A stretch of 64,000 bases of DNA from a virus (taxonomy: Duplodnaviria > Caudoviricetes): positions 1 through 64,000 of the IMG/VR virus record IMGVR_UViG_3300037067_025869; one strand, 5' to 3'. Both the position numbers and the translations under genes were made by a program. Under the pieces are notes generated by a model, which had not been told where the DNA came from, ran no database searches, and saw nothing but the letters and a program-made list of their open reading frames with translations. Of the stretch, positions 17,555 through 62,726 are shown piece after piece; the stretch's first letter is position 1, and each line of letters starts with the position of its first letter.

Positions 17555-19207
17555 TTAAGAAGAAAAATTATAATTTTTTTTATATTTTAAATTGCCAGAG
17601 TCAAAAGCTCTAATGAATCCTTTTTCGTGCATTATTTCTATCTCAGTTTTCTGTTTATTTGATTCATTTATAATTTTATCTTTCCTATAAGAAAACCTAT
17701 GCTTTCTACATCCATTTATAATCCAGTAATAGCCTGGGTCACATTCTTTTTCCTTTTTAAATCCTATTTTCTCATAAAATTTTCCATTAGAATAATCTCT
17801 TTTAGCATAAGTTATAATACAATTTGGTTTATAAGTTTTTTCAAAATATGTTAATATTTTTGAAGCACCCCCGACAATTACGGTATTTAGAGCAGAACAA
17901 AATCGATGAAGTTCGTAATTTCCTTCCGCATATTTTGAACCTAAAGAAATTCTATTTTTTCCGAATCCCATTACCGAAACCAATTGATCTGAATAGAAAA
18001 GCCCGATTTTAATAGAAGAATTTATAGCTCCTTGTAAATGGTTTTTTATTAAAAATTCTTTATATTCATAAGACCCTATTTCTCTAATATAAGTTTTCCT
18101 TGCGAAAATTATATTTTCAGTTTTATTTAATTTATTAGAAATTAAAGATTTAATTATTTCTTTTTTATTATAAAAATCGTCTTCCCATATTTGAATTAAC
18201 TGTATTCCCCTTTCCTCGCATTTTTTTAATTTATTTAAATGATATTTTTTATTTTTATAAATTTCAGAATGCCAGTAAATGCCATTTAGTTCAATAGCTA
18301 AATTAAATTCCGGAATAAAAAAATCTATTTCTTCTGGCTTTATAATTAATCTGTCATTTTTAAGATAATTTATTTTTAGATCTCTTAAAATTTCTTCAAA
18401 TTCGCTTTCAAACGAAGAAAATGAATTTAAAGGATTACATATAGGACAAATTACGCCATTTCTGTTTCGAGCAGCTCTATTATAAAAAGTTATAGCATCT
18501 ATTTTGAACTCAGGATGCTTTTCACATGCATTAAAAATTTTCAAAGAATTTGTATCCAAATACTCTACTTTATAACCCTTTACACACCACTGATTAATAG
18601 AGTTTTCTTTTTTATTTTTCCCGTTATCTCTATATTCTTTTAATGAAAATATATTTCTTACCCCATATTTTACTAATAACGTATTTTCGGCTTTTTCTTT
18701 TATCTCCTTTATTTCGAATGGAGATTTAACATTTATCCCATACTTTTTATAGAGAGTTTTATTTCTTTTCTTTTTAATGAAATCCCCATTTTCTGAATAA
18801 ATTTTTTTTAAGGATTTAGAAACCGATAAACTATTTTTATTTATAATCTCTGGATCTTTATTAGCGCATGATCGGGAACAATAAATCCCATAATTATATT
18901 TAAATTTTAGAGGGGTTTTACAAATTTTACAAAGAGGGCGTGTTGATAAGTCATGGGTTAAACAATATATTTTCTCCTGTAAAGAAAAAGATGAATCAAA
19001 AGAGGAATTTATGAAATCCCATAAATCATATTTCAAGAGAAATTTTTTATTTGTTCTAGAAGGAATAATTAATTTTTTTCCATTTAATAGCAAAGACTTA
19101 ATTCTATCAATCATACGAGCATTTTCTCTATATATCCCTTTACTATGAGAGGGATTTAGATATTTTATTTTCTCTTTCCTTAAGTATTTTTTGTAATTCA
19201 ATAGCAT
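17555..19207 (-). mobile_element. Free-standing endonuclease: Zn finger + PD-(D/E)XK (Vsr/Hef-like) + GNAT-like domain
   Basis: CKIC/CSRSC, EIDFFIPEFNLAIELNGIYWHS, IQIWEDD, NHLQG, YELHRFC, GGASK, YEKIGF. Confidence 0.8.
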
Positions 19208-20591
19208 CTAATTCAGCATCCTTAGCCTTTTTCTGAGCTTTCTTCCTCTGAGCATAATAATCTGTTAAGATCTCTGGGAGCAATGGTTCATAAGACGCAT
19301 CAAAAACTGCGCCAGAAGAACACTTTACCCGCTTATCATTCGCTTTATAATTTTTATCTTTTGTAATAAAATTCTCAATAGAAATTTTAAATTGTCTCAT
19401 TATAGTAGGATACAGAGAATTAAAATCAAAGGATCCTACCCATCCATATAAATCTGGAGTGGGATTAAATACAAAAGCTCCTTCATAAGATTCTCTCGTT
19501 CTCTCTCTCCTTTCTTGGGGAAATACCAAATTTCTACCATAAGCATATCTAGCTGCAATAGCTTCAAGCATGTATATCGGGGAAAAAGCATTCATGGCTT
19601 CAACCCTTGTAATATTGCTTAATCCTAGAAAGATACCAAGAGTTTTAAGTTTATAATGAATCTGTTCTACAAGTATAGAATCTATTGCATTATAAAAAAC
19701 ATATTGATCAAAATCCTTATTATATTGTTCGGAAAAAGATCCAGGGTATTTAACTTTAGTAACCCCAAGAGTTGCTTCAGCTGTAAAATCTAAAGACATG
19801 TTTTCTTTTGGATCAATTACTCGATCCCATTTTTTATAGATCTCCATATAGTCTACAATAAGCTTATGCTGGGGGAGAAGAATATCAACCCTTTCATTTT
19901 TATCCATAATCTTATGTTTATACCATTGTTTGGTCGGGCTCATCCAAGAAATGTCTATATGTAATAGATGACAACGATTAGAGATGTATCTCCAGTCATA
20001 ATTCCAAAAATTCCATCCAATAATAAGGGGGGCATGACGTGCATAATTATAAAGGAAATCATAAAGCATATCTGCTTCGTTATTGAATTGCTTATAAACA
20101 AAAGAATATCGGATACCCAATTTTTCTAAGTGTTTATTGATATTTGATTCAATTTTATCAATCTCAGGAGCCGATAAAGGTTTTAATCCAAAAACAATGA
20201 CTTGATCTTTATGACTCCATGAAATGGTATTAATTCGACTCATTGCATCTCTTGGCTCAGCAAATCCGCTATCTTCATCAACATCTACTTCAATATCACA
20301 TGAATAAGCATTGGGTTTGTTCATCTCAAATAATGGGCCAACCAATTCTTCCCCTGCATCTACAAAAAATTCCTGTATTCTGTATCGGGAAAGAAACTCA
20401 CTCGGAGTTTTTCTGACTGGACGATTATCCCAAGACCTCACTTTTGGGTCAGATCCGGATTGTGATCTAGAATAAGTATAAATATATTGATGAGATGGAG
20501 GAATATTTAACTGCATAAAAGAAATATTTCCTTCCTTGTTGATATAAGAAACAATTAATTTTCCGTGTCTTTGTTCGATATTAATTATCAT
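19143..20591 (-). CDS. gp43: Family B DNA polymerase, N-terminal half (exonuclease + motif A)
   Basis: DIEVD ExoI, GWNFWNYD ExoII, YNAID ExoIII, YEGAFV, SFDFNSLYPTIM; ends in the fingers after QRKK; no KxxxNSxYG or YGDTDS. Confidence 0.9.
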   Translation of the reverse strand: MIINIEQRHGKLIVSYINKEGNISFMQLNIPPSHQYIYTYSRSQSGSDPKVRSWDNRPVRKTPSEFLSRYRIQEFFVDAGEELVGPLFEMNKPNAYSCDIEVDVDEDSGFAEPRDAMSRINTISWSHKDQVIVFGLKPLSAPEIDKIESNINKHLEKLGIRYSFVYKQFNNEADMLYDFLYNYARHAPLIIGWNFWNYDWRYISNRCHLLHIDISWMSPTKQWYKHKIMDKNERVDILLPQHKLIVDYMEIYKKWDRVIDPKENMSLDFTAEATLGVTKVKYPGSFSEQYNKDFDQYVFYNAIDSILVEQIHYKLKTLGIFLGLSNITRVEAMNAFSPIYMLEAIAARYAYGRNLVFPQERRERTRESYEGAFVFNPTPDLYGWVGSFDFNSLYPTIMRQFKISIENFITKDKNYKANDKRVKCSSGAVFDASYEPLLPEILTDYYAQRKKAQKKAKDAELDAIELQKILKERENKISKSLS

Positions 20592-21030
20592 TTTTATTTT
20601 TTATTTTATTTCGATTTTTATAAGCTCCATTTTCCCAAGCTTTATGAATTTTATTTGTATTTCCTATTTTAGATATTGATATATTTTTCTTGGCTTCTTC
20701 TGACAAAATCATTCCTAATCCGCCATCTCCTCCTTTTGTCATATTATATCCATATTCTGATAAATTCGTTTTGTCTTTATCAATCCAATAAGTTTCTCTT
20801 TCGCATAAAATTTTATGTAACTCTATTTTATTATCTGCTATATGTTCTTCAATAAGCTCCCATAAAATCTTTTCCCATCCATATTTTTTGATTGCGGAAT
20901 AAAAACTGCATTTTCTTCCTTTCAAAAAAGAATATCTATGTTTGATTTTTCGTTCCTCGAATCCCAAAGATGAATATCCATAATATTTTTTACCTGAAGG
21001 CGATGTAGCACAATAAATTATACCTTTCAT
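20581..21030 (-). mobile_element. GIY-YIG homing endonuclease
   Basis: GIIYCATSPSGKKYYG, ERETYWI, GYNMTKGGDG, SEEAKKNIS. Confidence 0.85.
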
Positions 21031-21084
21031 CTTAATTATTTTATATGCGGGGGGAGGGGAAGAGTTTATATAAAAACGTTAAAT

Positions 21085-21106
21085 AAAAAAGACCCCTCGC
21101 GGAGCC
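21085..21106 (-). terminator. Intrinsic terminator with GNRA loop
   Basis: GGCTCC-GCGA-GGGGTC-TTTTTT on the minus strand. Confidence 0.6.
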
Positions 21107-21124
21107 AGTTTTGCATGGAGATTT

Positions 21125-21535
21125 TTATACTCGTTCGAGATTTGGATTCCAGAATAAACACTGAAGCCTAAGCCTATCAGTAGTTTCCAGAAAATATTTT
21201 AATTGTTCAATACTAATAAATTCCAAAAATGGAATATTCAATCTTATAGCTTCTTCTTGTTCCATATCCGCTCCCAGAGAAGGGATTTCAGCTCCAAAAT
21301 TATCTCTTGGACGAATGCGAATAATTCCCTGACACATCTTAAGAATTTCAAAATCATACTCAAGCCATTCGGAAGCAGATCTTTCCCTGATTTCGTTTAT
21401 ATAATGAGTTAGAAGAGGAGCAATTGGAATATAGCCAAAATCTTTTAATACATTCCACACGTCAATTTGTAATTTGACCATTTTTAATTTATCCCCATTT
21501 GTATACGGTGAAGCAATATAGATCTTTTCTTTCAT
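21125..21535 (-). CDS. Nucleoside deoxyribosyltransferase-like protein (DUF1937/DUF4406-like)
   Basis: KIYIASPYT, PIAP, WLEYD, SLGADME. Confidence 0.7.
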   Translation of the reverse strand: MKEKIYIASPYTNGDKLKMVKLQIDVWNVLKDFGYIPIAPLLTHYINEIRERSASEWLEYDFEILKMCQGIIRIRPRDNFGAEIPSLGADMEQEEAIRLNIPFLEFISIEQLKYFLETTDRLRLQCLFWNPNLERV

Positions 21536-21894
21536 TTAGGTAAAACCCCAATTTTTCTAAAAATTTTTGTTAATATGGATTTATCGTCTAAAAGAAATTC
21601 CGAATGATTTTTACTGACTTTTTCTTGTTTTGATTTGATCTTAGATTTCTCATGAAACGATCTCATTTTAGACTCTATTATATCCTTAAGCTCTTGATAA
21701 TGGATTTCTTCGAAATCCTTGTCATAAAAAACCTGAATATTTGAATCCATAGTTACAGGGAGAAGAAATGTATAATATTCATCGTTAGCATTGGATTCAT
21801 TAACTACTCGTTGAAGCTCATTCAGATTTTTTATAATTATATCCATTGACATTCCTTCAACACAATAATTTATAACAAGAATTGGCTTTGCCAT
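21532..21894 (-). CDS. Hypothetical protein
   Basis: ORF coupled to its neighbours. Confidence 0.7.
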   Translation of the reverse strand: MAKPILVINYCVEGMSMDIIIKNLNELQRVVNESNANDEYYTFLLPVTMDSNIQVFYDKDFEEIHYQELKDIIESKMRSFHEKSKIKSKQEKVSKNHSEFLLDDKSILTKIFRKIGVLPK

Positions 21895-21896
21895 TT

Positions 21897-22127
21897 TTAT
21901 GAATTTAATTTCTGATATTTTATTTCTTTTTTACCTTCATCCATCTCTAAAATGCCTAGTTCTTTTAAAGTACTAATCGATAGGATAATGTTATTTGGTG
22001 CTAAAGTAAATGGCGCTTCTTTAAAAGCAATTACTTGTTGAAGCATAAGATGAAGGGTATAGTTGGGCAAGCCCTGCTCCCTATACTGTTCTTCAACCTC
22101 TTTAAGTTTTTCTAAATTGAGTCTCAT
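21897..22127 (-). CDS. Hypothetical protein
   Basis: 76-aa ORF. Confidence 0.7.
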   Translation of the reverse strand: MRLNLEKLKEVEEQYREQGLPNYTLHLMLQQVIAFKEAPFTLAPNNIILSISTLKELGILEMDEGKKEIKYQKLNS

Positions 22128-22351
22128 ATATTTTCAATAATTTTATTTAATCTCTTTACCATTTCTTCCATGCCCCATGTTTTTTCTTCTGATCCATTTA
22201 ATTTTTAACTATTAATCGAGGTGTCATAAAATCTCTTATCATTATTTCTTGAATAAGTGTTATGGATTTAACCCCGATTTTTTCAAGATTCTCTTGGGTA
22301 GCTTTCTCCAAAAATATTAATATAGTTAATATATTTCTGCTTGCTTATCAT
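22124..22351 (-). pseudogene. Frameshifted small gene (compensating +1/-1 lesions)
   Basis: 228-nt slot with ATGA overlaps at both ends; the middle is open only in the +1 frame. Confidence 0.5.
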
Positions 22352-22875
22352 TTTTTGTCTGTGCTTCCGAATCCATCAGCTCCTCTTGTAGTAGTTTTTT
22401 CTTCATAGAATTTTTCGAGAGTTTTTCCTTCTTCAACTTCTATATCTGAATTGTATATTGGGATTTCGAGAAATTGGATGGCTTTCATCCCAGGGGTAAT
22501 CATAGCTGGAATTGGAATATTACTAGTATTAATAAGACTAATATGTATTTCCCCCTGATACTCATAATCTACTACACAAGCACCCACAATTAATCCTGTT
22601 TTTGTAGCAACGCCAGATTTATTAGCAGCAATTAATGCTCTTCCAGAATGTGCCATTTGGCAATGAATCCCCGAAGGAATAAGAATTCTATCTCCTTGTC
22701 TGAGATAAATTCCATCTTTTGAAATTTCGTTATTGTTCGGATTTTTTGCCTTTAGATCTCTAATGAATTCGGGGGTAAATTCAGGAACATAAAAATCTAT
22801 TCCTGCATCATATTTATTAGCACGGCTGGGTGATTTAACGTCTCTTGTTTTAAGAAATTTTATTGATTCGATCAT
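22348..22875 (-). CDS. dut: Trimeric dUTPase
   Basis: DAGIDF, RILIPSGI, NKSG, GACVVDYEYQGEI, RGADGFGST. Confidence 0.92.
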   Translation of the reverse strand: MIESIKFLKTRDVKSPSRANKYDAGIDFYVPEFTPEFIRDLKAKNPNNNEISKDGIYLRQGDRILIPSGIHCQMAHSGRALIAANKSGVATKTGLIVGACVVDYEYQGEIHISLINTSNIPIPAMITPGMKAIQFLEIPIYNSDIEVEEGKTLEKFYEEKTTTRGADGFGSTDKK

Positions 22876-22916
22876 AATATATTTTTTATATTATAATCCT
22901 TAAAGAAGGAAAAGTT

Positions 22917-23123
22917 TTACTTAACGCCTATTTTTTGCATAAGTTTTTTTACAATATCCCAAGATATGAGGGTTCCATCTTTTCCTAATAGACCTTCTTT
23001 GCCAGCAAAAACCCTTGAAATTCCATCAATTTTGAAACCCTCATAATTATGACCACCCATTTGAATAGTTTCATTAACGGGTTCGTCAATAGATTCTTTT
23101 ACTAGTTTAACGGATTTTTTCAT
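22917..23123 (-). CDS. Small putative virion internal protein
   Basis: N-terminus MKKSVKLVKESIDEPVNE. Confidence 0.7.
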   Translation of the reverse strand: MKKSVKLVKESIDEPVNETIQMGGHNYEGFKIDGISRVFAGKEGLLGKDGTLISWDIVKKLMQKIGVK

Positions 23124-23890
23124 TTTATAGTCTGTTTCATCGAATTTTGATTTTCCTTGGCTTTTTTCTTCTTAAATGGAAGTTTTACCCCCATTTTTTT
23201 AGCTATTGCCACCCCCAATTTATCGTATGGCGAAATATTTGTTTCATTAAGCGATTCTTTAACCAGTTTTACTTTTTTTCTTTTCCTTTTCTTTTTCTGT
23301 TTCTGATTACCGCTTCCCCAGATATCTCCGGATCCTTTAACCCCCGATTGATAAAATTGATTCCCAGTAGTAGCAACTTGCTGAGCTGGTACAGCATTAC
23401 TCATTCCTGGGACACTTCCCGCCCCGGTCATAGGAGCTCCCGTATCTTCATTTATTGGATTTCCTTTTTCGTCATACCCCCAAGCTTTTCTCCGATATTT
23501 TTCTTCATATGGCTGAGAATAAATTTCTCTATTTAGAAAATCATCAATAGCTGATTTATAAGGAGGACTAAAATAATAAGGTCTCCCATTATAATTGATG
23601 AAATCTTCTAATGTAGCCCATGGTTTATTTGTATCCGTACTATAATCCCCTGAATTATCAGCAGTACAACGCATAAGTTTGCTTCTAAGGATATTTTCAA
23701 TATCAAATGGGGTGTATTTTTCTTTTAAAAGCCATCGAATAATCCTCATCCATTCATTATCACTATAGTAAAGACCATAAGAATAAGCCCGATTATCTCC
23801 AGATGTAGTTTTTTTAAAAATAACATTAGCAATACCAATACCCATGGTTTTTTTAGGGTCCTGACCCCGTAAGAATCCTGCTTTAGACAT
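23120..23890 (-). CDS. Hypothetical protein with FxRGxDP leader
   Basis: GFLRGQDPKKTMGIG; internal INE and LVKESLNE sites. Confidence 0.75.
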   Translation of the reverse strand: MSKAGFLRGQDPKKTMGIGIANVIFKKTTSGDNRAYSYGLYYSDNEWMRIIRWLLKEKYTPFDIENILRSKLMRCTADNSGDYSTDTNKPWATLEDFINYNGRPYYFSPPYKSAIDDFLNREIYSQPYEEKYRRKAWGYDEKGNPINEDTGAPMTGAGSVPGMSNAVPAQQVATTGNQFYQSGVKGSGDIWGSGNQKQKKKRKRKKVKLVKESLNETNISPYDKLGVAIAKKMGVKLPFKKKKAKENQNSMKQTIK

Positions 23891-23901
23891 GAGAGCTAAT
23901 T

Positions 23902-24354
23902 TTATGCTCCTCCAAAGGTTGTATGACCGCTGGTTCCACCGCTAGCAAATGCAGTTTTAAGATTTACGGCTTCCATATTTTTCCATGCAACTTGAAGTTT
24001 TCCTTGAACATAGGTAGGGCTAGTTCTCCCATAGAATTTTGCAGAAGCTGCTTTTTCGAGATATTTCTGAAGCATTTCCAATGGAGCTTTTTCCGCCCAT
24101 ACCTTAAGTGTTTTTCTTCCAGCTTCGGGTGAATCAGCAACATAAGTTTTGAGAGCTACCCCCCAGGCAAATTTTCTAACGGATTTTTCATCATCTTTAT
24201 TAAGACTCTCATATTCCTTATTTAAACCCTGAAATGCTTTTTTAAGCCCGGCAACAAAATCATTTACGATTGATTCGGAAACAGCATTCATTTCTTCGTT
24301 TAATTTTGCATAAGCACTCTCATTGAGAGATTCTGCTACTAATTGGATTTTCAT
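23902..24354 (-). CDS. Putative virion internal protein
   Basis: MKIQLVAESLNES leader; late-type motif upstream. Confidence 0.75.
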   Translation of the reverse strand: MKIQLVAESLNESAYAKLNEEMNAVSESIVNDFVAGLKKAFQGLNKEYESLNKDDEKSVRKFAWGVALKTYVADSPEAGRKTLKVWAEKAPLEMLQKYLEKAASAKFYGRTSPTYVQGKLQVAWKNMEAVNLKTAFASGGTSGHTTFGGA

Positions 24355-24415
24355 AATAATTATTTTTATTTTATATATTCATTATTTTACAAAACTCTTA
24401 ATATAAAGATAATTT

Positions 24416-25393
24416 TTATAGATTAAGAGAATCTATTAAGCGAGTTCTAATTTTGCTAATTTTTTGAGCTATTTTAATATTTTCAGGATTATCGTCAAAA
24501 AATGTTATATCATCATATTTGTCTGCTAAGCTTTGTAGAATCTTTCTTTTCTCCTCCGGTATATTAATTTCCCCTTTATCATCACCAATAGTTATAATAT
24601 GATCCTCAGGAATATCAATTCCATTTCTTCTAAAAAAAGTCCAAATAGGTATTTTAGCAATAGCTGATCTAGCTGTAAGTATAAAAATTTCTGAAGTGCT
24701 TCTTCCCTGTTTAATAGCTGCATCCATATTTTGAAGAGCAGGCCACATTTTATATGGTTTTGCTTTTAAAATTATTCTGGGGTCCTTAAATTCAGAAACA
24801 TCTATTTCTTCATCTTCAGCTTTCTGATAAAAATTAAATTCTTCCGGGGTTAATGATTTTAGGAACTTACCTGCTTTATAAACATGAACTTTTGCATCAG
24901 TTTTTACCAAAGTATCATCAAAATCCCAGATATACGCCTTGGTCTTTCTATTTACTGTTTTTGCTCTCATTCTATTTTCTTTAAGAGGAAAAGATTTAAT
25001 TTTTTCTATTTGTTCTTTAATTTTTTCAAGTCTTCGAACAGTTCTCCATTCATGATTAGCATCAGCATTTTTAATTGCCCCCTCAAGGTCTGCTCCTCTT
25101 TTTTGAATTATATGTATTGCTACCTCGTCATTTTTTTCCCAAGCTAAAACTTTCAATATTTCATGCTCCTGAGAATTTATATCAAGGCCTTGCGATAAAA
25201 GATAATCCATAAGATCAGATCTTTTTGCTGTAGCACAACTAATGAAATATCCTATTTCGTCCATGCTTTCAGTATTTTTCTCTTGAGATTTAGCCAATTG
25301 TTTAATTTGACCCATCATTCCTATGCCAATAGCATTTTTTGGATCTATGTCTCGGCTAAAATTCAATACTTCGCTGATAATTATAGCTCTCAT
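24416..25393 (-). CDS. FxRGxDP-leader, ankyrin-like + HAD phosphatase fusion
   Basis: NFSRDIDPKNAIGIG; LLSQGLDIN and KRGADL ankyrin-like turns; WDFDDTL, ILTAR, FFDDN HAD motifs. Confidence 0.75.
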   Translation of the reverse strand: MRAIIISEVLNFSRDIDPKNAIGIGMMGQIKQLAKSQEKNTESMDEIGYFISCATAKRSDLMDYLLSQGLDINSQEHEILKVLAWEKNDEVAIHIIQKRGADLEGAIKNADANHEWRTVRRLEKIKEQIEKIKSFPLKENRMRAKTVNRKTKAYIWDFDDTLVKTDAKVHVYKAGKFLKSLTPEEFNFYQKAEDEEIDVSEFKDPRIILKAKPYKMWPALQNMDAAIKQGRSTSEIFILTARSAIAKIPIWTFFRRNGIDIPEDHIITIGDDKGEINIPEEKRKILQSLADKYDDITFFDDNPENIKIAQKISKIRTRLIDSLNL

Positions 25394-25427
25394 ATTTTAT
25401 ATATTTCAACTCTAAATGCGGGAAAAC

Positions 25428-25456
25428 AAAAAACCCTCTAAAAAAGAGGGTTTTTC
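25428..25456. terminator. Intrinsic terminator
   Basis: AAAAACCCTCT/AGAGGGTTTTT inverted repeat. Confidence 0.75.
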
Positions 25457-25475
25457 TATATTTTAATTTTATAGT

Positions 25476-38812: not shown

Positions 38813-39200
38813 TTATAATATCTCGTTAAAAATTCTTTCATATATAAGATTTCCCGTATTGAAGATTTTAAAATAACCTCTTTCATACATTATTTGATTC
38901 CCAGATTTATTCTTATCCTCTTCATTTTTTATTATTTTCTATTTTTAAATTTATATATTTTTTATCCCCACAAGTAGAATATAAATATTTTTTATATTTT
39001 AATGGTTTCCCGCAGGAACACAATGGCATTTCTAAAATATTATTCTTTAGACAAAAAATACGAAGAGATAAAGAAGAATCCGATGATAAAAAGGAGGTTT
39101 TGTCCAAAACCTCTTTATATAATTCAGGTTTAGATTTAACGAAGTTAAATATTCCTAAATTTTTTCCATTTAATATTTTTAATAAATCTTCTTTAGACAT
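38813..39200 (-). pseudogene. Internally deleted Hef-like endonuclease remnant
   Basis: N-terminal LRIFCLKNNILEMPLCSCGK joined out of frame to KNKSGNQIMYERGYFKIFNTGN, the C-terminal tail of the three intact paralogs. Confidence 0.75.
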
Positions 39201-39260
39201 TTTAGATAGTAAGACAATTTAGCTTTTTAGATATCTTTAATATATTCTATATATCTACGA

Positions 39261-53494: not shown

Positions 53495-53522
53495 GAACCA
53501 TATAATTAATGATAAATAAAAT

Positions 53523-54038: not shown

Positions 54039-54889
54039 ACATTCTCTGGTTGTTTCAATCTCCATTGCTCCATTTCTTCTTCTACCCATGGAATTTTTAT
54101 GGATGTTATTCTTTTTTCTAACTTTTTAACTATCACTGAATTCTCTGGAACATTAAATAGCATAATTGCTGGGTCACCTTCGTGCCAATTTTCAAACTGT
54201 TTAACAGCTTTGTTAATTAGATTTTGATCAAAATGATCTTTAGCTGACCAGTTATCTAATTTCTTACGAATGTTTTTTCTAACCCACGCAAGATGTTGCA
54301 TTCTGATTTCATCATCTTCAAAAACATAAGTTCCTATATTTAATGGGTTTAAAATTCTTCTTGTCGGATCTGTTGGGCCGGGAGCAGGACCGTTAAATGT
54401 GTATGTAAAGAATGTTGAATGGATACCAGGAACAAAAGGTCTAAATGGATATACCAAATAATGTTCTAGGTCTCTAAAATAATTTACATAACTCCAGTAT
54501 GTGATTGGACAACCTTTTTTATTTATTATATCTTTGGCATTTCTGAATTGATCAGCATCATAAAATTCATCTGCATCGATATTTAAAATATGAGAGCATC
54601 CTCGTTGTTTTGCTAGCTCGATACCCATATTTCTTTTATCCGTTTCCTGCTCTCTTGAATATTTGAGATAATTTGGTTTAAATTCTATTAACTCATCAAT
54701 AAGCCCGATTTTTTTTAATCTATTCAACTCTTCCATATCAGCTGGATCCATTGGATTTTTCCAATAAGATTTTTTCTGATAAAATCCTGCAACCCAATCC
54801 ACTTGATCCCTTATCTGAGAAATTAAGTCAAATAAAAGTTCACTCGAGTCAAAGCAGTTTACAGTAACACCTAATCGCTTTATCTTCAT
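54020..54889 (-). CDS. GT-A fold glycosyltransferase (GT2-like)
   Basis: ETDKRNMG, SHILNIDADEFY (DxD), MQHLAWVR. Confidence 0.8.
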   Translation of the reverse strand: MKIKRLGVTVNCFDSSELLFDLISQIRDQVDWVAGFYQKKSYWKNPMDPADMEELNRLKKIGLIDELIEFKPNYLKYSREQETDKRNMGIELAKQRGCSHILNIDADEFYDADQFRNAKDIINKKGCPITYWSYVNYFRDLEHYLVYPFRPFVPGIHSTFFTYTFNGPAPGPTDPTRRILNPLNIGTYVFEDDEIRMQHLAWVRKNIRKKLDNWSAKDHFDQNLINKAVKQFENWHEGDPAIMLFNVPENSVIVKKLEKRITSIKIPWVEEEMEQWRLKQPENVKKEVI

Positions 54890-54937
54890 ATACTTATATC
54901 CTTATTTATATCTTTTTATTTCTCTAAATATATTGTG

Positions 54938-55174
54938 CTATTTATCAATCTCCTCTTTATTAAATAAACTTATCCATTCCCTTTCAAAACGAATCCATCT
55001 TTTTTCCCTTTCCTTTCTCTCTTTTTTATTTTGAATAATAATTTTAATAATATAAATAAAAAATAAAATTAAAGCTATGTATGTTAAAGCTGTAATCGCA
55101 TTTGAATAAAAAGCATCCTGTATATTTAATATTCCTTTTACAAGATCATCTCTAAATTGCGAAAATGGATTCAT
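54938..55174 (-). CDS. Small membrane protein
   Basis: One TM segment followed by a basic tail. Confidence 0.65.
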   Translation of the reverse strand: MNPFSQFRDDLVKGILNIQDAFYSNAITALTYIALILFFIYIIKIIIQNKKERKEREKRWIRFEREWISLFNKEEIDK

Positions 55175-55189
55175 TTCATATTTAATATT

Positions 55190-55891
55190 TTAATATGACA
55201 AATCATCGAAAATGATTGGGATCTTTGATTTAAAATCCGCTAATAAAGGAATCGTTATTTCTCTCATCTGCGGGTGAGCAGGTGCATCGCATCTCATGCG
55301 AAAGAAATGTCTCCATTCGCGAAGATTATATTTACAATTGATCTCTGTTTTAACAGAATTAGGCAGCACACTACGAGCTAATTGAGCCGGACAATATGCG
55401 TTAGTAAGATTATGATAATGCCTTTCGGAATCTTCCATTGCTTTATACCATTCATCATACCAATATAGAATGTCTTCTTCAGCTATTTCTTTTGTATTTC
55501 CAGAAATAGGATGACTAAATTCCTTCCCAATTTGTAATTTAAATATATTATTAATATCAATGAATGTAATTCCATGATCATATTTGTCCTTAGAATAATT
55601 ACAATATCGAGTACTTTCTTGAGCATAAGATGCAAGTCGATGACGTACAATTTCATGGGAAATTCCTCTGTCGCAAGTAAATTTAACAATGATATCGTAA
55701 AATTCAATCATTGCTTCATGTTTTCTCTTAATAAGATTATTAATCATTTTTTCGGCAGAATCCTCTGCTATTTTATCTTCTGATTTATAGCAGGTTCTTG
55801 CGACTCTTTCGATAGTTCGCATTAGACATTTTACTTCTTCCGGATCGTCAATTGGTGTGATGATCTCATAGGAGGGTTTAATTAAATTCAT
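55190..55891 (-). CDS. thyX: FAD-dependent thymidylate synthase
   Basis: ARTCYKS, HEAMIE, SHEIVRHRLASYAQESTRY, ARSVLP, NLREWRHF. Confidence 0.95.
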   Translation of the reverse strand: MNLIKPSYEIITPIDDPEEVKCLMRTIERVARTCYKSEDKIAEDSAEKMINNLIKRKHEAMIEFYDIIVKFTCDRGISHEIVRHRLASYAQESTRYCNYSKDKYDHGITFIDINNIFKLQIGKEFSHPISGNTKEIAEEDILYWYDEWYKAMEDSERHYHNLTNAYCPAQLARSVLPNSVKTEINCKYNLREWRHFFRMRCDAPAHPQMREITIPLLADFKSKIPIIFDDLSY

Positions 55892-55943
55892 AAAAATAAT
55901 ATATAATTTTTTATTATACAGTTTTTATCCTTTATAGTTTTAA

Positions 55944-58304
55944 TTAATCAAAACTTAAAACTCCTTTTCCTGGGGATGACGGGCTAAATTCAAATTTAAC
56001 TTGGCCTTTTTTCATAGCATCTAATAATTGGGAACCAACAGCAACTCCTATTTGAGCAGAGATTACATCCCAATTTGTTGTTGGAATAGAGGATTCATTG
56101 ACAACTTTGGAGGTTGTTTGAATTTTTTCAGCAGTAGTTCCTCTCGTAGTTCCATCGGAAATTCCGCTAGTTACCCCAGCACTCACAGAAATAGCAGCAA
56201 GTTTTGAAAGTTTTGCCGTATCAAATCCATCGAGACTTACAGAAAGATCATTGAGAGATTTAGCTAAATTTGAAATGGTATCATTAGTTTTTTCTAAAGC
56301 TGATAATGATTCTGAAAATTTAGAAAGTTCTTCTATAACCCCGCTATATTTTTGGATGGCTTTTTTAGCATCTTTTGCACTAGATTTTTCTAATTTTGTT
56401 GCGAGAGTATCCGAAAAAGTTGTAAGAGCGGAAACAATATTTTGAGCAATAATGCCCATCGAAAGTATTTTGGGTTTTCCGTTTTCCATTACAGGTTTAC
56501 CCTCTGCATCCAGAATCGGAATTTCATTATTAGGGCCAAATTCAGCAAACATTTTTAAAGTATCGGCGAATTGCATAACTGCTCCAAGAATACCATTTCT
56601 TCCAACAAGAGCTTTAGACATTCTTTTCATTCTTCTTTTTTGCTTACCCGAAATTCCCTTCCCCTCAGGCTCACCATCCCCAAACTCGCTTTCTGATTTC
56701 GAAAATAGTTGTTCTGTAAAATATAAGAAACTACTAATCATATTTTTAACAACAGTCTTGGCTGCAACCTTTTTCCTTATCTCGTTTCCTTTATCGTCAT
56801 AATCAATATATCCTATTTCATTTTTTTCCCCAAATTCGGCATATATTTTCATCGCATCTGCAAATTGAATAACTGCCGAAAGAATACCTCTTCTTCCGGT
56901 AAGCGCTCTACCCATTTTTCGAATGGCAATAGCTTTTTGCTTTGTAAGTCCTTCTGTAGATTCAAGAAGAGCAGTTAAAAAAGTACTAATTGAATAAGAT
57001 ATGTTATCGGCAACTTTTGATAAATTAACTTTTTCGCCGAATATTGGCTTTCCGTTCTTATCATATCCTTCAATAATTCTCATACTATTTAGTTCGGCAA
57101 AAGCAGATACCGCTCTTGCAAACATCGAAAGTGCAACAGACATTGCCATTAATACCACTATTCCAGCAAATATCTTAGCACTATTTTTTATAAATTCCCC
57201 AATACCTGCGAATCCTTTCTTCCCCCCGGAAAGAACTGAAATACCGTCAATCATGCCGCCAAGAACCCCTCCGATTAAATGCCCGAGCGTTTCCCTAATA
57301 TCTACATCTTTTAATTCATTCGAAATGCCAACAATTTTTTTAATCATTACTGCAAGTAAAAAGAAAGTTCCTCCAAGCATTAAAATAGTCAAAGCACCAA
57401 GAGCTACTTCAACAATCATAGTTCCTAATAAAGCAAATATAAGAGCAGATCCAACGATAACTCCTCCGATAACTAGCATAGATTTTAATAATCCCCCGCC
57501 GGTTTCCTTCCCCAATATTTTAGGAATTAAACTAACTGCTAAAGCAAAAGAAACTAATCCAAGTGCCAATGCAGCCATCCCGATACCCATTTCAACAAGG
57601 GTGGAGCTTCCTTTTTTAATGAACTTATTAGCTAAAGCAAGAGCTCCAAATACTACTAATAATCCTAATATAGCAACCCCAAGGAAAATAAAAACATCTT
57701 TTGGGCTAGCTAATTTCATGATCATTGCAGTTAATAGTAATGACCCGGCAAAGGCAAGTATTCCTATACCTAAATATGCAAAGCTAAGAGAAATATCTTT
57801 AATTGGTTTAGCTATTTTTTGAAGAGATTTAGCTATCTTATCAAATGTTTTAACAGCTTTATCTACTTTTCTAGTACTTGAAGCATCCCCTTTTTCCTCC
57901 ATAAAATTATAAAGAGATTCTAAAGTAGTAAGAGCCATATGAACTTGTCTCTGCTTGATCCTACCTAAAGCATCTAACCCTGTAGCTAATCCAGGCAGAC
58001 CTTGACCTAAAAGATTTAACGATTCTGCTAGATTTTTTAAACCTTTTGCCCCCTTCTGACTTTTGGCGCCAATAGCTACAAATTGCTCAATAAAAGTAAA
58101 AAAATCTTTTATTGTTTTGGGCTTAACCCTGCCAAATGATAATAGAGAAGGTCCTAAATTAGATAGTACTGAAATTTTATTTTTTATTTGCGATCCTACT
58201 TCTTGAGGAGCAGGACCACCTGACCCTTTAGCAGATCGGGTATTCTCCTCAATTTTTCCGAGGGTTTTTAAAATACCATATAAAAGTTCATTAGCTTGAA
58301 GCAT
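55944..58304 (-). CDS. Tape-measure-like protein
   Basis: 786 aa, Ala/Leu/Gly-rich helical with a central hydrophobic block and internal repeats; downstream of tube and gp26-like genes. Confidence 0.65.
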   Translation of the reverse strand: MLQANELLYGILKTLGKIEENTRSAKGSGGPAPQEVGSQIKNKISVLSNLGPSLLSFGRVKPKTIKDFFTFIEQFVAIGAKSQKGAKGLKNLAESLNLLGQGLPGLATGLDALGRIKQRQVHMALTTLESLYNFMEEKGDASSTRKVDKAVKTFDKIAKSLQKIAKPIKDISLSFAYLGIGILAFAGSLLLTAMIMKLASPKDVFIFLGVAILGLLVVFGALALANKFIKKGSSTLVEMGIGMAALALGLVSFALAVSLIPKILGKETGGGLLKSMLVIGGVIVGSALIFALLGTMIVEVALGALTILMLGGTFFLLAVMIKKIVGISNELKDVDIRETLGHLIGGVLGGMIDGISVLSGGKKGFAGIGEFIKNSAKIFAGIVVLMAMSVALSMFARAVSAFAELNSMRIIEGYDKNGKPIFGEKVNLSKVADNISYSISTFLTALLESTEGLTKQKAIAIRKMGRALTGRRGILSAVIQFADAMKIYAEFGEKNEIGYIDYDDKGNEIRKKVAAKTVVKNMISSFLYFTEQLFSKSESEFGDGEPEGKGISGKQKRRMKRMSKALVGRNGILGAVMQFADTLKMFAEFGPNNEIPILDAEGKPVMENGKPKILSMGIIAQNIVSALTTFSDTLATKLEKSSAKDAKKAIQKYSGVIEELSKFSESLSALEKTNDTISNLAKSLNDLSVSLDGFDTAKLSKLAAISVSAGVTSGISDGTTRGTTAEKIQTTSKVVNESSIPTTNWDVISAQIGVAVGSQLLDAMKKGQVKFEFSPSSPGKGVLSFD

Positions 58305-58328
58305 CTGTAAGGGTTTTATTTATATATC

Positions 58329-59897
58329 TTATGCTTCAATATATTCCCATTTTATATTTCCCGAATTCCATATTTTATGAAAATCCCTTTCCCCCATTAA
58401 TTCATCCCCTGTTTTTTCTGAATTCTTGCAAATTTTCCATTTTTGAAAATTTCTTCTATTGTATTTATGATGATTATCACTCCACCAAAAACCAGGACCA
58501 GTTTCCCCTAAATTTTTAAATCCTAATTTTCCATAAATATCACCAGAAAATATATCTAAATCCGAATATGATATTATTTTATTTGGTTGAAAATTTTTTA
58601 TAAAATATTTAAATAATTTTTGTGCTCCCCCAATAATGGATATATTTTTTTTATTACAAAATCTTAATAATTCCCACCCCTCAGAATTTCCCCTGTTTTT
58701 TGAAAAATTCATCACAGAAATTAAATTATCATTAAAAAATAGTCCCAGATTTACAGATCCATATATTTTTCCTTGCAGATGATTGTCATCCAAAAACTGC
58801 ACTATATCAGAGGATTTTAATTCTTTTATTATTGTTTGTCGTGCATATATTCTTTCAGTTTTGCCAAATTTATTTTTTATGAGGGATTTTATAATTTCTC
58901 TCTTAAAATTCCAATTATCTTCCCATATATAAAAAAGATCTATACCTTGTTTTTCAAAAAAAGCTTTTTTATCTCGATGATATTTTCTATTTTTAAATAC
59001 ATCACTATGCCAATATAAACCATTAAATTCAAACCCCATTTTATATTCGGGAATAAAAACATCGATTTCAGCATTATTAACTCTATAATTTCTAATAATT
59101 TCTATATCCGGAATGGTGTCTTTTATAAAATTATATAATTCTATCTCTCCAGAAGAAGTTCTATGTAAGTTTGCATGATAATCACAATATAAATTATAAA
59201 TTTTTTTTGACTTACAAAATTTTACTTCATTGGAACATTCTAAACATTTTGGCCTACTTGAAATATTATTTTTAAAAGCAAATACTTTTTCCTGAAAATC
59301 TCCAAACGGTATATTTAGTATAGATTTGTATAAGGAAGGAAAATAAGTAGATATATATTTTTCTTCTAATTGCTTTGGATATAAGATTTTTTTAATATTT
59401 TCTTTGTCTAACGACGTATTTTCCAGAATGCTTCCGCGACAGATGGGGCAAAATTCCCCATTTAAGCTATAAATTTTTTTAAATAAGATCTTTCTGATAG
59501 TAAAACTTCCATGGGAACAATAATTAGAAATTTCATAAAAATATCTATCCTTTATTTTTATATTTCCTTTAAAATTAATATATTTTTCATTAATTTTATT
59601 TTCCTTGCCTATTTTCATATTTTTCCGCTTTTCTTCGGATATATTATATCTATAATAATAAGAAAGCGGGTTCATAATATATTTTTCTTTGTAATATTTG
59701 TATTTAACAATTAACTCCTCCTTATCATTAATTTTTTCAACTATCTCTGTAGAAAAATTTTTATATCCAATTTTTTTTATATCTTCTTTTAATAATTTAT
59801 TAGAAGAATATCCGATTTTAATTCTATTATCAGAATTATTTCTGGCATATAAAAATCTTCCCGATATATTATTGGTTACTTTATAAATATAATACAT
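58329..59897 (-). mobile_element. Endonuclease: degenerate GIY-YIG + PD-(D/E)XK + GNAT-like domains
   Basis: MYYIYKVTNNISG; EIDVFIPEYKMGFEFNGLYWHS; NHLQG, WELLRFC, GGAQK, YGKLGF. Confidence 0.8.
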
Positions 59898-59938
59898 GTA
59901 TCAAATCTTTATTATCATATATATCGCAAAAAAGTTTG

Positions 59939-59968
59939 AAAAAAAAGAGGATAATAATTTATCCTCTT
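59939..59968 (-). terminator. Intrinsic terminator
   Basis: AAGAGGATAA/TTATCCTCTT with T8 on the minus strand. Confidence 0.75.
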
Positions 59969-60173
59969 AAAATTTAGACTTTGAAATATTAGGTAAACCC
60001 ATCTTCGGGATTTTAAACCCCCCATAGTCCGTTTTTTGGGAAGGCTTCTGAGCTTGAGCTTTTTTCATCTCTTGCTCTTCTTTCTTATATCTTTTCTCCT
60101 CCTCCTTATCGTGTTCTTCTAATTCCTGAAGAATATATTCGATTTCATAAAAATCCATTTGATATAAATCCAT
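59967..60173 (-). CDS. gp51-like tail/baseplate assembly chaperone, possibly a frameshift partner
   Basis: FHISPMDLYQMDFYEIEYILQEL pattern; frame open upstream to 60275 without a canonical start. Confidence 0.55.
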   Translation of the reverse strand: MDLYQMDFYEIEYILQELEEHDKEEEKRYKKEEQEMKKAQAQKPSQKTDYGGFKIPKMGLPNISKSKF

Positions 60174-60213
60174 CGGGGAAATATGGAATCTATTAGCAAA
60201 TATAAATTCTATT

Positions 60214-61143
60214 TTAATCCAGTTGAGAAAACGGATCTGAAATAAGGAAAATAGATTTAATCCCTCCTTGAAAGTTTAGCGGGATAACCCGCTCACCTCC
60301 GTTTTCATCTTTATATTTAAGTACAGGATTAATAGCTTCAGAGAAGATCTTTTTTACTTCTGTTAGCATTGAAATTTCTCCAGCAGACCAATTGTTGGAA
60401 TCCATGACGAATTTTTCGTAAGAAGCATCATTTAACCCTCTCCAGTCGCCTATTACGAAGGGTGCATAGCTAATAAAATCCTCATCGAACATTTCACCAG
60501 CATTTCTTTTTCTATTGATATATTGTTTTAGCCAGTTTGTAACACCAGCTGTTGGCAGATGAACTCTGATTTTCTTTCCAGACTTAAAAGGAAGAACTAT
60601 ACATCTTTCATCAGGGGAATAGTATTTCATAACTCTATCATCAAAAGTGATATAGTTTACCATATCCTTAACAACATCTATTTTTGCCGTTTCGGATACC
60701 TTTGCTTGAAGCTTGTTATCCCCCTTAAGAAAGGTTCTTTCCCTGATTGCAAGAATAATATAGAAACGATCTACTTCTTTAATATCCCTCCAGGAAGATA
60801 ATTTATTATCTGGATATTTTACATTGCAGCATCTTTCCAAAACATAATTCAACATATCATCAAGAACAAAAACATCATCTTCATTTAATGTTGACCAGTG
60901 TCTTATTTCAGCTGCCGTTGCTGAACGAATTATAATTTCAGTTTGCTCCGGGTAAAACAATCCCTGGGTAGGAAGATCTGTTGTTTTTAATTTTTCCCAT
61001 CCCAATTCATTTTGAGGATCCTTTGACTGTGCAAATGGAAATGGAACAGCTCCAACGGGTATCGGAGTTATTAAAGGGCCGATTTGTCCTTCTTTTGACT
61101 CTGCAAATTCTCTTAATTTTTCTTCATTAGCATTTTCTGACAT
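60214..61143 (-). CDS. gp26: T4 gp26-like baseplate hub assembly protein
   Basis: LPTQGLFYP, IIIRSAT, DRFYIILAIRE. Confidence 0.65.
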   Translation of the reverse strand: MSENANEEKLREFAESKEGQIGPLITPIPVGAVPFPFAQSKDPQNELGWEKLKTTDLPTQGLFYPEQTEIIIRSATAAEIRHWSTLNEDDVFVLDDMLNYVLERCCNVKYPDNKLSSWRDIKEVDRFYIILAIRERTFLKGDNKLQAKVSETAKIDVVKDMVNYITFDDRVMKYYSPDERCIVLPFKSGKKIRVHLPTAGVTNWLKQYINRKRNAGEMFDEDFISYAPFVIGDWRGLNDASYEKFVMDSNNWSAGEISMLTEVKKIFSEAINPVLKYKDENGGERVIPLNFQGGIKSIFLISDPFSQLD

Positions 61144-61220
61144 AGTTTATATAATTTTATACAATTTATCTATATATTATTATATGTCAAAAAGCTCGTT
61201 AGTTTCGAATAAATATTCAT

Positions 61221-62726
61221 TTATCCTCTTTTTTCAAATTTTATATTGCCATTCCCCCATAATTTGATAAACCCTCTTTCTCTCATAATTTGATCTTCCG
61301 ATTTATTTTTGTCAAACCCTTCTTTGACTAATTTATGCTTCATAAAATTACTTCTATGATATTTTTTCCCATCTTTTATCCACCAATAATTTGGATCAGT
61401 ATCTTTAATGTGGGAGAATCCTAATCTATAGTATAAATCCCCTTGAGATATATCTCTATTTGCAAATGAAATAATGTTTTCTGAATTATATTTTTTTACA
61501 AAAACCGAGAATAATTTACTGGCTCCACCAACGATACTTGTATCCAATTTATTACAGAATCTTAATAGCTCATAGCCTCTGGCATTTCCTTTGAAAATCA
61601 TTCTTTTTTTGCCAAAGGTCATTATAGAAACTAGTTCATTATTATTATATAATCCTATATTTATGGAAGAGAGGCAATCCCCCTGTATATGATTTTTTAA
61701 CAAGAAATTTTTTTTGTTTATAGCATTAACATATTTAATTTCGCAATTTCTTGCGAATATTCTAAAGATATTTTGTTTTAATTTATTTCGCAAAATTGAT
61801 TTAATAATTCCGTTTTTATATTTCCAGTCATCCTCCCAAATAGTTATAATATGAATGCCTCTTTCCTTAAAAAAATTCGTTTTTCTAACATGATCTTTTT
61901 TATTTTTAAATTTTTCACTATGCCAATAAAGCCCATTATATTCTATTCCTAACTTTTGATCCGGTAAATAAATATCCAATTCGATATTTTGAAATCCCCT
62001 AAAATTTTGCAGAATTTCCCCTTTATAAATTTCTCTCAAAAAATTAAAAACTTCTTTCTCACCATCACTTGAAAAGTCAAGATATTTATGTTTTTTACAA
62101 TATTTCGTAAATCCAAATGAAGAAGTAGATACTAGCAATTCTTTATTTTCAGTGCATCCATTTTTTTCACAGATAGGTATTTTAGAAATATTATTTTTTA
62201 TAAAATATATTTTATCTGAAAAACGTAGATTCAAATGGGGTAAAGAAAAATTATTAACTATTTTAAAAAATTGAGGCATATATTTTTTAAAATATAATGG
62301 AGTTTGCTGGCTAGAAGAAACAAAAATAATTTTTTTTAAGGCTTTTTTACATGCCTCAATCTCTTTGATTGATGGAATGTACTGATCACTCAGATAAAAA
62401 TCACGGCATTTAGGACATAGGATTTTAAATTCTTCCGGGATTTTAGCACTTCTTAATCTTTTTTGATTTTCTACTATTTGTTTCCCATGTAAATTACAAT
62501 TGAAAAAATGCTTTGCTTGAGCTACAAATAATTCTTGGGAAAATAATCGGGGATCATCCTTGAAAACCGTAAATTTATTATTATTGAAATCTTTTACAAC
62601 CACTTGATATTTAGAAGACTTAATGATATCCTCTGATTTTTTTTCATATTCTTCTTTAGAAAGATGGATGATTTCTTTCTTTTTAAGATCGTAGCATCGA
62701 ATTTTTCCGGGTATATATTTTGGCAT
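61221..62726 (-). mobile_element. Endonuclease: PD-(D/E)XK (Vsr/Hef-like) + GNAT-like domain
   Basis: ELDIYLPDQKLGIEYNGLYWHS, ITIWEDD, NHIQG, YELLRFC, GGASK, YYRLGF. Confidence 0.8.

Follow-up and report, generated by a model that had tools for sequence, protein, structure and literature searches.

Three Hef-type homing endonuclease genes in a phage genome with a predicted C-terminal domain related to phage Mu Mom

Three genes (ORF1, ORF2 and ORF3) in a 64,000-nucleotide stretch of phage DNA, here called the window, are ordinary members of the known Hef-type family of homing endonucleases and behave as plain mobile insertions. Their C-terminal domain is, as judged from the predicted structure, a true relative of Mom of phage Mu, with the GNAT fold and Mom's extra DNA-facing insertion. 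This domain is the rule in the Hef-type family and does not represent a special fusion. A preliminary description had taken the genes for nucleases joined to a Mom-like GNAT domain and had suggested that, if so, they are not plain homing endonucleases but units that cut and modify DNA. The structural half of that interpretation is supported, the functional half is not. We consider it rather probable that ORF1–ORF3 are free-standing Hef-type homing endonuclease genes, each of them a separate arrival of about 1.6 kb, in which the GNAT domain serves as an accessory module. For these genes the result is mostly ordinary: three further members of a known family, with an under-described domain. Their source is an uncultured jumbo phage that probably infects Bacteroidota.

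Gene structure and the Hef-type nuclease

ORF1–ORF3 are intact and all lie on the minus strand (Table 1). In a profile search they matched PHROG 3339 'homing endonuclease' with E-values of 1e-113 to 5e-89, and homologues at E<=1e-3 numbered more than 4,500. The nuclease and C-terminal core shared by three genes, as noticed before, is thus real and far beyond chance, and the motif series quoted for it (NH.QG, EL.RFC, GGA.K and Y..LGF) is present in all three proteins. The family is very large: the proteins retrieved with a profile built solely from the C-terminal domain form 19,549 clusters at 50% identity, nearly all of which show the same architecture. The conserved core common to the three paralogues comprises about 285 residues and follows variable zinc-finger N-termini; pairwise identity amounts to 45–46% in the core and 34–35% over the full length. 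A recent duplication within the genome was considered and rejected because each gene has closer relatives elsewhere (56% identity for ORF3) than its two companions. The model of the core, which is confident over both parts (pLDDT 95.4, pTM 0.90), resolves into two domains, nuclease and then GNAT, and the same arrangement is found across the predicted structures of the family (TM ~0.9 over 290 residues). A structure prediction with two copies of this core gave no support for a homodimer and says nothing for or against one. In the predicted structure of full-length ORF3, two Cys/His clusters of the N-terminal region (C77/H80/C104/C107 and C186/C191/C210/H213) have the look of zinc-binding sites, and this variable region is presumably the part that recognises the target.

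The PD-(D/E)XK core proposed in the preliminary description is real as well and belongs specifically to the Vsr-like/EDxHD branch of that superfamily. The nuclease domain aligned with I-Bth0305I (PDB 3R3P), the EDxHD prototype, over 94 residues (Z 12.2, rmsd 2.6, 26% identity) and with Vsr (1cw0) at Z 11.5; 3r3p was also reached by sequence with phmmer and a profile (E 0.0016 and 7.5e-6). Equivalents of the catalytic residues D196 and H213 of I-Bth0305I exist in every copy (Table 1), as do the E-x-D and W-E-D motifs, so that the catalytic nuclease residues are directly supported. I-Bth0305I has the same Vsr-like catalytic domain with the same catalytic Asp and His, but unlike ORF1–ORF3 it is intron-encoded, carries N-terminal NUMOD/helix-turn-helix DNA-binding repeats and ends with the nuclease, without a GNAT domain. 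Hef-type enzymes are included in the EDxHD family (PMC3239194).

The closest known system is formed by the Hef-like free-standing endonucleases, namely Hef of phage U5, those of the Campylobacter phages CP220, NCTC12673 and CP21, F-LimIII/VII/VIII/X of LIMEstone and those of PA5oct. Genes annotated as Hef-like in Campylobacter, PA5oct, Acinetobacter and ViI-like phages were matched by tblastn. They share the nuclease-plus-GNAT core with 36–43% identity over residues ~200–497, a comparison that was made through annotated Hef-like genes. Predicted structures of the family overlay the core at TM 0.86–0.95, whereas the N-terminal regions of ORF1–ORF3 differ. Membership in this family is therefore directly supported, and it agrees with the genomic setting: Hef-like genes occur in multiple copies in large myoviruses, where their neighbours are conserved genes, the tail tube gene being one example (PMC3296691).

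Table 1. Positions of the three genes, their domains and a decayed copy in the window
Feature	Positions	Strand	Remarks
ORF1, Hef-type homing endonuclease, 550 aa	17555–19207	−	PHROG 3339, E 1e-113
ORF1 Vsr-like/EDxHD nuclease domain, residues 264–362	18122–18418	−	E293, D295 (I-Bth0305I D196), E306, H313 (I-Bth0305I H213), H323, K326, E342 and D343 all present
ORF1 Mom-like GNAT domain, residues 363–550	17558–18121	−	H390, R435, S449 and Y478 kept; K469/D471 at the positions of Mom D149/R151
ORF2, Hef-type homing endonuclease, 522 aa	58329–59897	−	PHROG 3339 match
ORF2 nuclease domain, residues 248–346	58860–59156	−	Catalytic D279 (I-Bth0305I D196) and H297 (I-Bth0305I H213) present
ORF2 Mom-like GNAT domain, residues 347–522	58332–58859	−	H373, R412 and Y455 kept; Q426 at the position of Mom S124; D446/D448 at those of D149/R151
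ORF3, Hef-type homing endonuclease, 501 aa	61221–62726	−	PHROG 3339 match
ORF3 variable N-terminal region	62070–62726	−	Small beta domain, two Cys/His clusters and helical domain (full-length model, pLDDT 89)
ORF3 nuclease domain, residues 220–318	61773–62069	−	3r3p match; D251 (I-Bth0305I D196), H269 (I-Bth0305I H213)
ORF3 Mom-like GNAT domain with strand 6–7 insertion, residues 319–501	61224–61772	−	8bv8 match
Decayed fourth Hef-like copy	38825–39206	−	E 9.7e-7

Insertion sites

Each gene is a precise insertion of about 1.6 kb with exact edges, and most related phages lack an insertion at these sites, which makes the insertion polymorphism a direct observation. ORF1 (inserted segment ~17563–19159) has the DNA polymerase N-terminal gene on one side and the ribonucleotide reductase gene on the other; in relatives these two genes follow each other directly, with a gap of ~80 bp and no ORF1. 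ORF2 (inserted segment 58330–59962) is located between a tail gene (60214–61143) and the tape-measure gene (55944–58304), and ORF3 (inserted segment 61214–62837) between the tail tube gene (62842–63441) and the same tail gene. In the relative L044 the empty sites measure 30 bp at the ORF2 position and ~40 bp at the ORF3 position. Gaps in relatives with empty sites are 117 bp from the tube gene to the next gene and 328 bp from that gene to the tape-measure gene. All three insertions fall between the end of a conserved phage gene, which for ORF2 and ORF3 has a hairpin with a T-run, and the start of the conserved gene that follows. With its start at 19207, ORF1 overlaps the DNA polymerase gene at the latter's end; as homology to the relatives with empty sites stops near 19159, the real start may be a later ATG. 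The idea that ORF1 splits the polymerase gene was rejected since the last residue encoded by the polymerase N-terminal gene is the same in every relative, whether the insertion is there or not.

In other relatives (L031/L032, L026 and L057) the same three sites are occupied by different Hef-like genes, which belong to different lineages of the family. The window also contains a decayed fourth copy, which consists of a zinc-finger N-terminus (a 92-aa ORF at 38922–39200) followed by the last ~35 residues of the GNAT tail, interrupted by stops; its nuclease has been deleted, together with the greater part of the GNAT domain. Empty sites, differing occupants and a decayed copy together form the pattern that selfish genes usually leave as they are gained and lost. 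This pattern makes it very unlikely that the three genes no longer home and are kept as domesticated nucleases for the phage's own use, such as degradation of host DNA or exclusion of rivals, even though all three are intact and stand beside essential genes and free-standing endonucleases of T4-like phages cause marker exclusion (PMC2988022).

If ORF1–ORF3 are homing endonucleases as we favour, their cycle would begin when a cell is co-infected by a relative without the endonuclease gene: the variable zinc-finger N-terminus would recognise a site within the adjacent conserved gene or close to it. The Vsr-like EDxHD domain would then cut this site, and recombinational repair would copy the gene into the rival genome. 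In this reading the conserved His/Arg/Ser/Tyr pocket of the GNAT domain would hold DNA and possibly also a small ligand or a flipped base. What we infer in this scheme is the target of cleavage, the homing and the part played by the GNAT domain.

The Mom-related C-terminal domain

The last ~180 residues were predicted to adopt the GNAT fold, with a mixed sheet, splayed strands 4 and 5 and four helices. Foldseek returned phage Mu Mom (PDB 8BV8) as the top solved match of this second domain (E 7e-8), and among 79 PDB matches at E<=1e-3 all those listed were Mom or acetyltransferases. In a fold comparison Mom aligned over 163 residues with Z 10.1; other GNATs aligned over ~120–144 residues, many with Z 9.6–10.7. 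Strand 6 and the final strand of the model are separated by a hairpin and helices, which correspond to the strand 6–7 insertion that is specific to Mom and common to both proteins. When a library of viral structures was ranked, Mom came immediately below full-length and partial entries of the endonuclease family itself. An hhalign comparison with a Mom alignment gave an E-value of 8.5e-6, the alignment running through the Y-H motif. The resemblances to GNAT proteins and to Mu Mom that had been read from the sequence are thus borne out; the folds of both halves are directly supported.

The link to Mom is visible only by profile-against-profile comparison and fold search. When PDB sequences were searched with an ordinary profile, 8BV8 was not among the hits, and the family profile matched a single Mom sequence weakly (E 0.13). 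The cut-off of the Pfam Mom family (PF25680), 27.1 bits, was not reached by the ORF3 core (17.5) or by full-length ORF3 (13.9), and ORF1 and ORF2 had no match to it at E<=1. In the wider family, 16 of 42 members matched Pfam Mom at E<=0.1 (best 2.9e-7), and relatives with 45–53% identity to the GNAT domain carry PF25680 in precomputed tables. Mom is a stand-alone dimer of 231 residues that uses Gly-tRNA to carbamoylmethylate adenine at N6 in double-stranded DNA, whereas in ORF1–ORF3 the domain follows a nuclease within one polypeptide. Few selfish nuclease genes of large phages are as common as those of the Hef-like kind, and in the literature searched we found no description of a Mom or GNAT domain in Hef-type enzymes; their conserved C-terminal half is left unnamed there.

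Mom active-site residues and the function of the GNAT domain

Residues of Mom are numbered according to PMC13219725. Equivalents of H58, R111 and Y159, which line the cleft of Mom, are kept in all three copies, and that of S124 in ORF1 and ORF3 but replaced by Gln in ORF2; His, Arg and Tyr were each present in 145 of 145 family representatives and Ser in 125. R111 and S124 have been shown to be catalytically essential in Mom (PMC13219725). D149 and R151 (D139 and R141 in the old numbering) are essential by experiment (PMC13219725; PMC7261163) and invariant among 25 Mom proteins, but the pair is not kept in ORF1–ORF3: at the R151 position every copy has Asp, and at the D149 position ORF1 has Lys, ORF2 Asp and ORF3 Asn. 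In the wider family the former position is Arg in 69 and the latter Asp in 125 of 145 representatives. A neighbouring clade has lost the D/R pair, yet His, Arg, Tyr and the glycine loop are nearly invariant in it. Y59, W181 and the dimer Trp W48 are absent throughout the family sampled; the Y59 position has Ile or Leu, that of W181 Lys or Arg, and that of W48 is variable. The loop between strand 4 and helix 3 reads x-x-x-G-G-A-S-K, compared with Q/R-x-x-G-x-G/A in GNATs, the first position not being Gln or Arg; its first Gly was found in 122/122 and 145/145 representatives and the Ala in 117/122. The basic insertion, which is needed for the activity of Mom and has been modelled against DNA (PMC13219725), is conserved (R458, K463 and K465).

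In a cut-and-modify unit, an active Mom-like transferase would add an acyl or aminoacyl group to a base at or near the target and so shield the carrier genome against its own nuclease or against restriction by the host. We regard this as unlikely for the three genes, and the function was not supported as stated. The substitutions at R151 in all copies, at D149 in two of them and at Ser in ORF2, the absence of Y59, W48 and W181 from the whole family sampled and the Pfam scores all argue against it; ORF1–ORF3 lack residues which Mom needs. On the other side stand Mom as the closest solved structure, the shared insertion, the retained cleft residues and the near-invariance of the glycine-rich loop for the donor phosphate. 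Given how widespread the D149 and R151 equivalents are in the family, catalysis may be ancestral and could survive in altered form in ORF1–ORF3. Sandegren et al. are said to have reported in 2005 that Hef also cut the DNA of its own phage, which would argue against self-protection. Cleavage and a base-modifying domain are combined in one polypeptide, as this proposal requires, in Type IIG/IIL restriction-modification enzymes such as MmeI, with no homology implied. In MmeI-type enzymes the modifying part is a SAM-dependent methyltransferase domain, and the PD-(D/E)xK nuclease is of a different type.

The most conserved residues of the GNAT domain, His, Tyr and the G-G-A-S-K loop, line the cleft that in Mom receives the donor (CoA or the tRNA 3' end), a pattern that suits an enzyme better than a passive DNA clamp. 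It could therefore be asked whether the domain acts away from DNA, acylating a protein such as the endonuclease itself or a host repair factor, or binding acyl-CoA or a tRNA 3' end and thereby tying the nuclease to the state of the cell. The variation at the flipped-adenine residues D149 and R151 and a loop nearer to the classical CoA loop of GNATs than to Mom's own would fit this. We nevertheless judge it quite unlikely, as the basic insertion that Mom requires is conserved and the fixed arrangement of nuclease and GNAT domain throughout the family fits a shared DNA substrate. In ORF1–ORF3 the GNAT domain is most likely a DNA- or ligand-binding partner of the nuclease and not an adenine modifier of the Mom type.

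For Hef-type endonucleases in general, a Mom-related domain that transfers an acyl or aminoacyl group to a base at the target site or to another substrate would make them two-function proteins, whose gene cuts rivals and also marks or protects its carrier. We hold this to be unlikely and, since Asp stands in place of the Arg that Mom cannot do without, less likely for ORF1–ORF3 than for the whole family. If true, Mom-like hypermodification of DNA would be extended to over ten thousand clusters of proteins. The chemistry of Mom was solved only in 2026, and the close structural relationship of the Hef C-terminal domain raises the question whether a homing endonuclease also modifies DNA or a DNA-modifying fold now serves a new purpose as a DNA clamp. 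In both cases the answer would inform the origin of Mom and the way in which Hef-type endonucleases find and hold their targets, which is relevant to their use as tools. Among four candidates for stand-alone GNAT-domain genes, a single one looks truly separate; it adjoins a T4-type portal gene and is too thin a sign of an independent enzyme. One of the other candidates is interrupted by the end of its contig, and one, which a zinc-finger ORF precedes by 145 bp, probably belongs to a split gene.

Three genes of the Hef-type family

The preliminary description of this DNA had reported three open reading frames with a common core and a series of shared motifs. All three are present (ORF1, ORF2 and ORF3), with pairwise identities of 34-35% over the full length and 45-46% in the core. 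Their first 220-260 residues are weakly conserved and the final ~285 residues, which carry the motif series, are highly conserved. Recent duplication was rejected because a homologue 56% identical to ORF3 exists elsewhere.

Positions of genes and segments
Feature	Position (nt)	Strand	Length
ORF1	17555-19207	-	550 aa
ORF2	58329-59897	-	522 aa
ORF3	61221-62726	-	501 aa
ORF1 inserted segment (DNA alignment)	about 17563-19159
ORF2 inserted segment (DNA alignment)	58330-59962
ORF3 inserted segment (DNA alignment)	61214-62837
Decayed fourth Hef-like gene	38825-39206	-
ORF within decayed fourth gene	38922-39200		92 aa
Tail gene between ORF3 and ORF2	60214-61143
Family-B DNA polymerase, N-terminal gene	19143-20591	-	482 aa
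GIY-YIG homing-endonuclease-like ORF	20581-21030	-	149 aa
Ribonucleotide reductase	14889-17480
Beta-helix protein	9761-12331	-	856 aa
Nucleoside 2-deoxyribosyltransferase-like gene	21125-21535	-
Thymidylate synthase-like gene	55190-55891	-
NAD-dependent DNA ligase	4703-5869	-
Methyltransferase-like and protease-like ORFs	7941-9702 of related locus L005
AAA-type ATPase	7237-8944 of related locus L040

ORF1, ORF2 and ORF3 matched PHROG 3339 ("homing endonuclease") with E-values of 1e-113 to 5e-89, and ORF3 also matched the Mom-like PHROG 1384 (E 2.9e-7). In Pfam, the ORFs reached only sub-threshold scores with the Vsr-like REase family MTES_1575, as did ORF3 with Mom. A tblastn search of phage genomes yielded 416 records, many of the matched genes being annotated as "Hef-like homing endonuclease"; they belong to Campylobacter phages (10-12 copies in each), PA5oct-like Pseudomonas phages, Lak phages and others. 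A review describes Hef of phage U5 as free-standing and as cutting the nrdB gene (PMC2988022), and Taylor et al. included Hef-type enzymes in the Vsr-like EDxHD family (PMC3239194).

A profile restricted to the GNAT domain retrieved 19,549 clusters at 50% identity, 10,071 of them below E 1e-30. Among 145 new diverse representatives taken from the best 150 hits of this profile (median length 560 aa) the GNAT domain is C-terminal. Apparent stand-alone forms of the domain were mostly fragments or split genes. Given this number of clusters and the constant position, the GNAT domain is the rule in the Hef-type family and no special fusion of this phage. The genes themselves are further, ordinary members of a known family, and the earlier view that they are not plain homing endonucleases is not supported as it stood.

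Structure of the nuclease and GNAT domains

For residues 215-501, the core of ORF3, folding together with 42 homologues gave a model with a pLDDT of 95.4 and a pTM of 0.90. Model residues 4-104 match the catalytic domain of I-Bth0305I (3r3p; Z 12.2, 26% identity), which was also found directly by sequence searches, and the nuclease part matches Vsr with Z 11.5. D251 and H269 of ORF3 align with D196 and H213 of I-Bth0305I, the positions mutated in the crystal construct, and their equivalents are kept in ORF1, ORF2 and ORF3 together with nearby Glu/Asp residues.

Model residues 112-287 form a GNAT fold. Foldseek against the PDB ranked the Mu Mom crystal structure first (8bv8, E 7e-8), ahead of dozens of acetyltransferases. 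The alignment with Mom covers 163 residues compared to about 120-144 for other GNATs, the additional residues corresponding to an insertion of a hairpin plus helices between strand 6 and the final strand; in Mom this insertion is needed for activity (PMC13219725). A profile built from 122 GNAT domains aligned to one of 25 Mom proteins with an E-value of 8.5e-6, and 16 of 42 family members matched Pfam Mom at E<=0.1. In a viral structure library, the two-domain core matched other Hef-like proteins with TM 0.86-0.95, and a phage Mom entry ranked directly after the full-length and partial entries of the endonuclease family. These comparisons confirm the initial assignment of the C-terminal part as GNAT-like and close to Mu Mom. 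The kinship is visible in the Pfam and PHROG tables; our literature search found no paper describing it for the Hef C-terminal domain.

Residues of the GNAT cleft

Mom modifies adenine N6 using Gly-tRNA; activity of its R151A variant was undetectable, D149A was severely impaired and variants of H58, Y59, W48, Y159 and W181 were strongly reduced (PMC13219725; PMC7261163). Numbers follow PMC13219725 and are 10 lower in PMC7261163. All proteins of the Mom alignment share D149 and R151 (old numbering: D139 and R141).

Residues of the GNAT domain at positions of Mu Mom
Mom residue	ORF1/ORF2/ORF3	Near relatives of ORF3 (n=122)	Diverse representatives (n=145)
H58	H/H/H	122/122	145/145
R111	R/R/R	122/122	145/145
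S124	S/Q/S	116/122	125/145
Y159	Y/Y/Y	121/122	145/145
D149	K/D/N	mostly N or S	D 125/145
R151	D/D/D	D 106/122	R 69/145
Y59	L/L/I	I or L	I or L 138/145
W48	not kept (ORF3 I)	variable
W181	R/K/K	K or R	R or K 139/145

On its donor side, the cleft is strongly constrained. The glycine-rich loop G-G-A-S-K of the Hef GNAT domain is almost invariant and resembles the phosphate loop of classical GNATs more than the loop of Mom does. The D/R pair that Mom needs around its target adenine is lost in the clade of ORF1-3, and the remaining pocket residues stay invariant in this clade, whose pocket function does not require the pair. An invariant pocket despite the lost pair argues against Mom-type chemistry in ORF1-3. 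That the three proteins are active cut-and-modify units, as had been proposed, is unlikely. The residue pattern would not count against binding of a ligand or of DNA, or against another transfer reaction; that the domain is a transferase or sensor for which DNA is not the target seems to us unlikely. We consider it probable that ORF1-3 are ordinary Hef-type homing endonucleases composed of an EDxHD nuclease and a Mom-related GNAT domain, the latter most likely a DNA- or ligand-binding module that would serve the nuclease. The presence of a Mom-related domain in Hef-type enzymes poses a clear question for experiment.

In most of the 145 representatives (P0361-P0505) the loop that follows strand 5 has the sequence A-D-R/K-R/S-W-S, a close match to A-D-E-R-C-G of Mom, and in the clade around the window A-N/S-x-D-I-S instead. 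Judged by this loop, the Mom-like subtype would be the better candidate for retained catalysis.

Insertion sites and neighbouring genes

The window comes from a 74.8-kb viral contig that makes up an estimated 18% of its genome, so that the source is a jumbo myovirus. ORF3 and ORF2 lie in the order tail sheath, tail tube, ORF3, tail gene, ORF2, tape measure, and ORF1 between the DNA polymerase N-terminal gene and ribonucleotide reductase. We compared 43 related loci via the tail tube protein and 23 via the polymerase fragment. The flanking genes directly adjoin each other in most relatives, with gaps of 117, 328 and about 80 bp, and DNA homology ends and picks up again precisely at the edges of three segments, each about 1.6 kb long. 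Every segment lies between the end of its upstream gene and the start region of the following one; the genes upstream of ORF2 and ORF3 end in a terminator-like hairpin plus T-run. Other Hef-like genes (38-47% identical) occupy the three positions in the relatives L031/L032, L026 and L057, and in the LIMEstone phage a Hef-like gene likewise adjoins the tail tube gene (PMC3296691). A fourth Hef-like gene of the window has lost its entire nuclease and the greater part of the GNAT domain; its short ORF retains the zinc-finger N-terminus, after which the final ~35 aa of the GNAT tail follow, broken by TAG/TAA stops. Empty sites, exact edges, other Hef-like occupants and a decayed copy form the pattern of gain, spread and decay expected of free-standing homing endonuclease genes, and we regard domesticated, non-mobile nucleases as very improbable.

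Relatives carry other cargo in the spacer between tail tube and next tail gene, a hot spot that holds methyltransferase-like and protease-like ORFs in L005 and an AAA-type ATPase in L040.

The separate polymerase N-terminal gene ends shortly past motif A. This end point is identical in all related contigs and the 74.8-kb contig lacks the C-terminal half; the split is accordingly an ancestral one, and ORF1 was rejected as its cause. Just upstream of the polymerase gene, the GIY-YIG ORF is present in L046 and L049 and absent from L045, L047 and L050; this locus thus has mobile nuclease genes of two kinds. The ribonucleotide reductase gene is uninterrupted in the window; in L047, L048, L055, L056 and L060 it is broken by 0.8-1.1 kb near residue 313-348, possibly an intron, an intein or a further endonuclease gene.

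The window further encodes a DNA ligase and a beta-helix protein with a C-terminal type IX secretion sorting domain (Por_Secre_tail), an unusual phage cargo that points to a Bacteroidota host. The deoxyribosyltransferase-like and thymidylate synthase-like genes could have to do with base modification of the DNA or with an unusual nucleotide metabolism in this phage.
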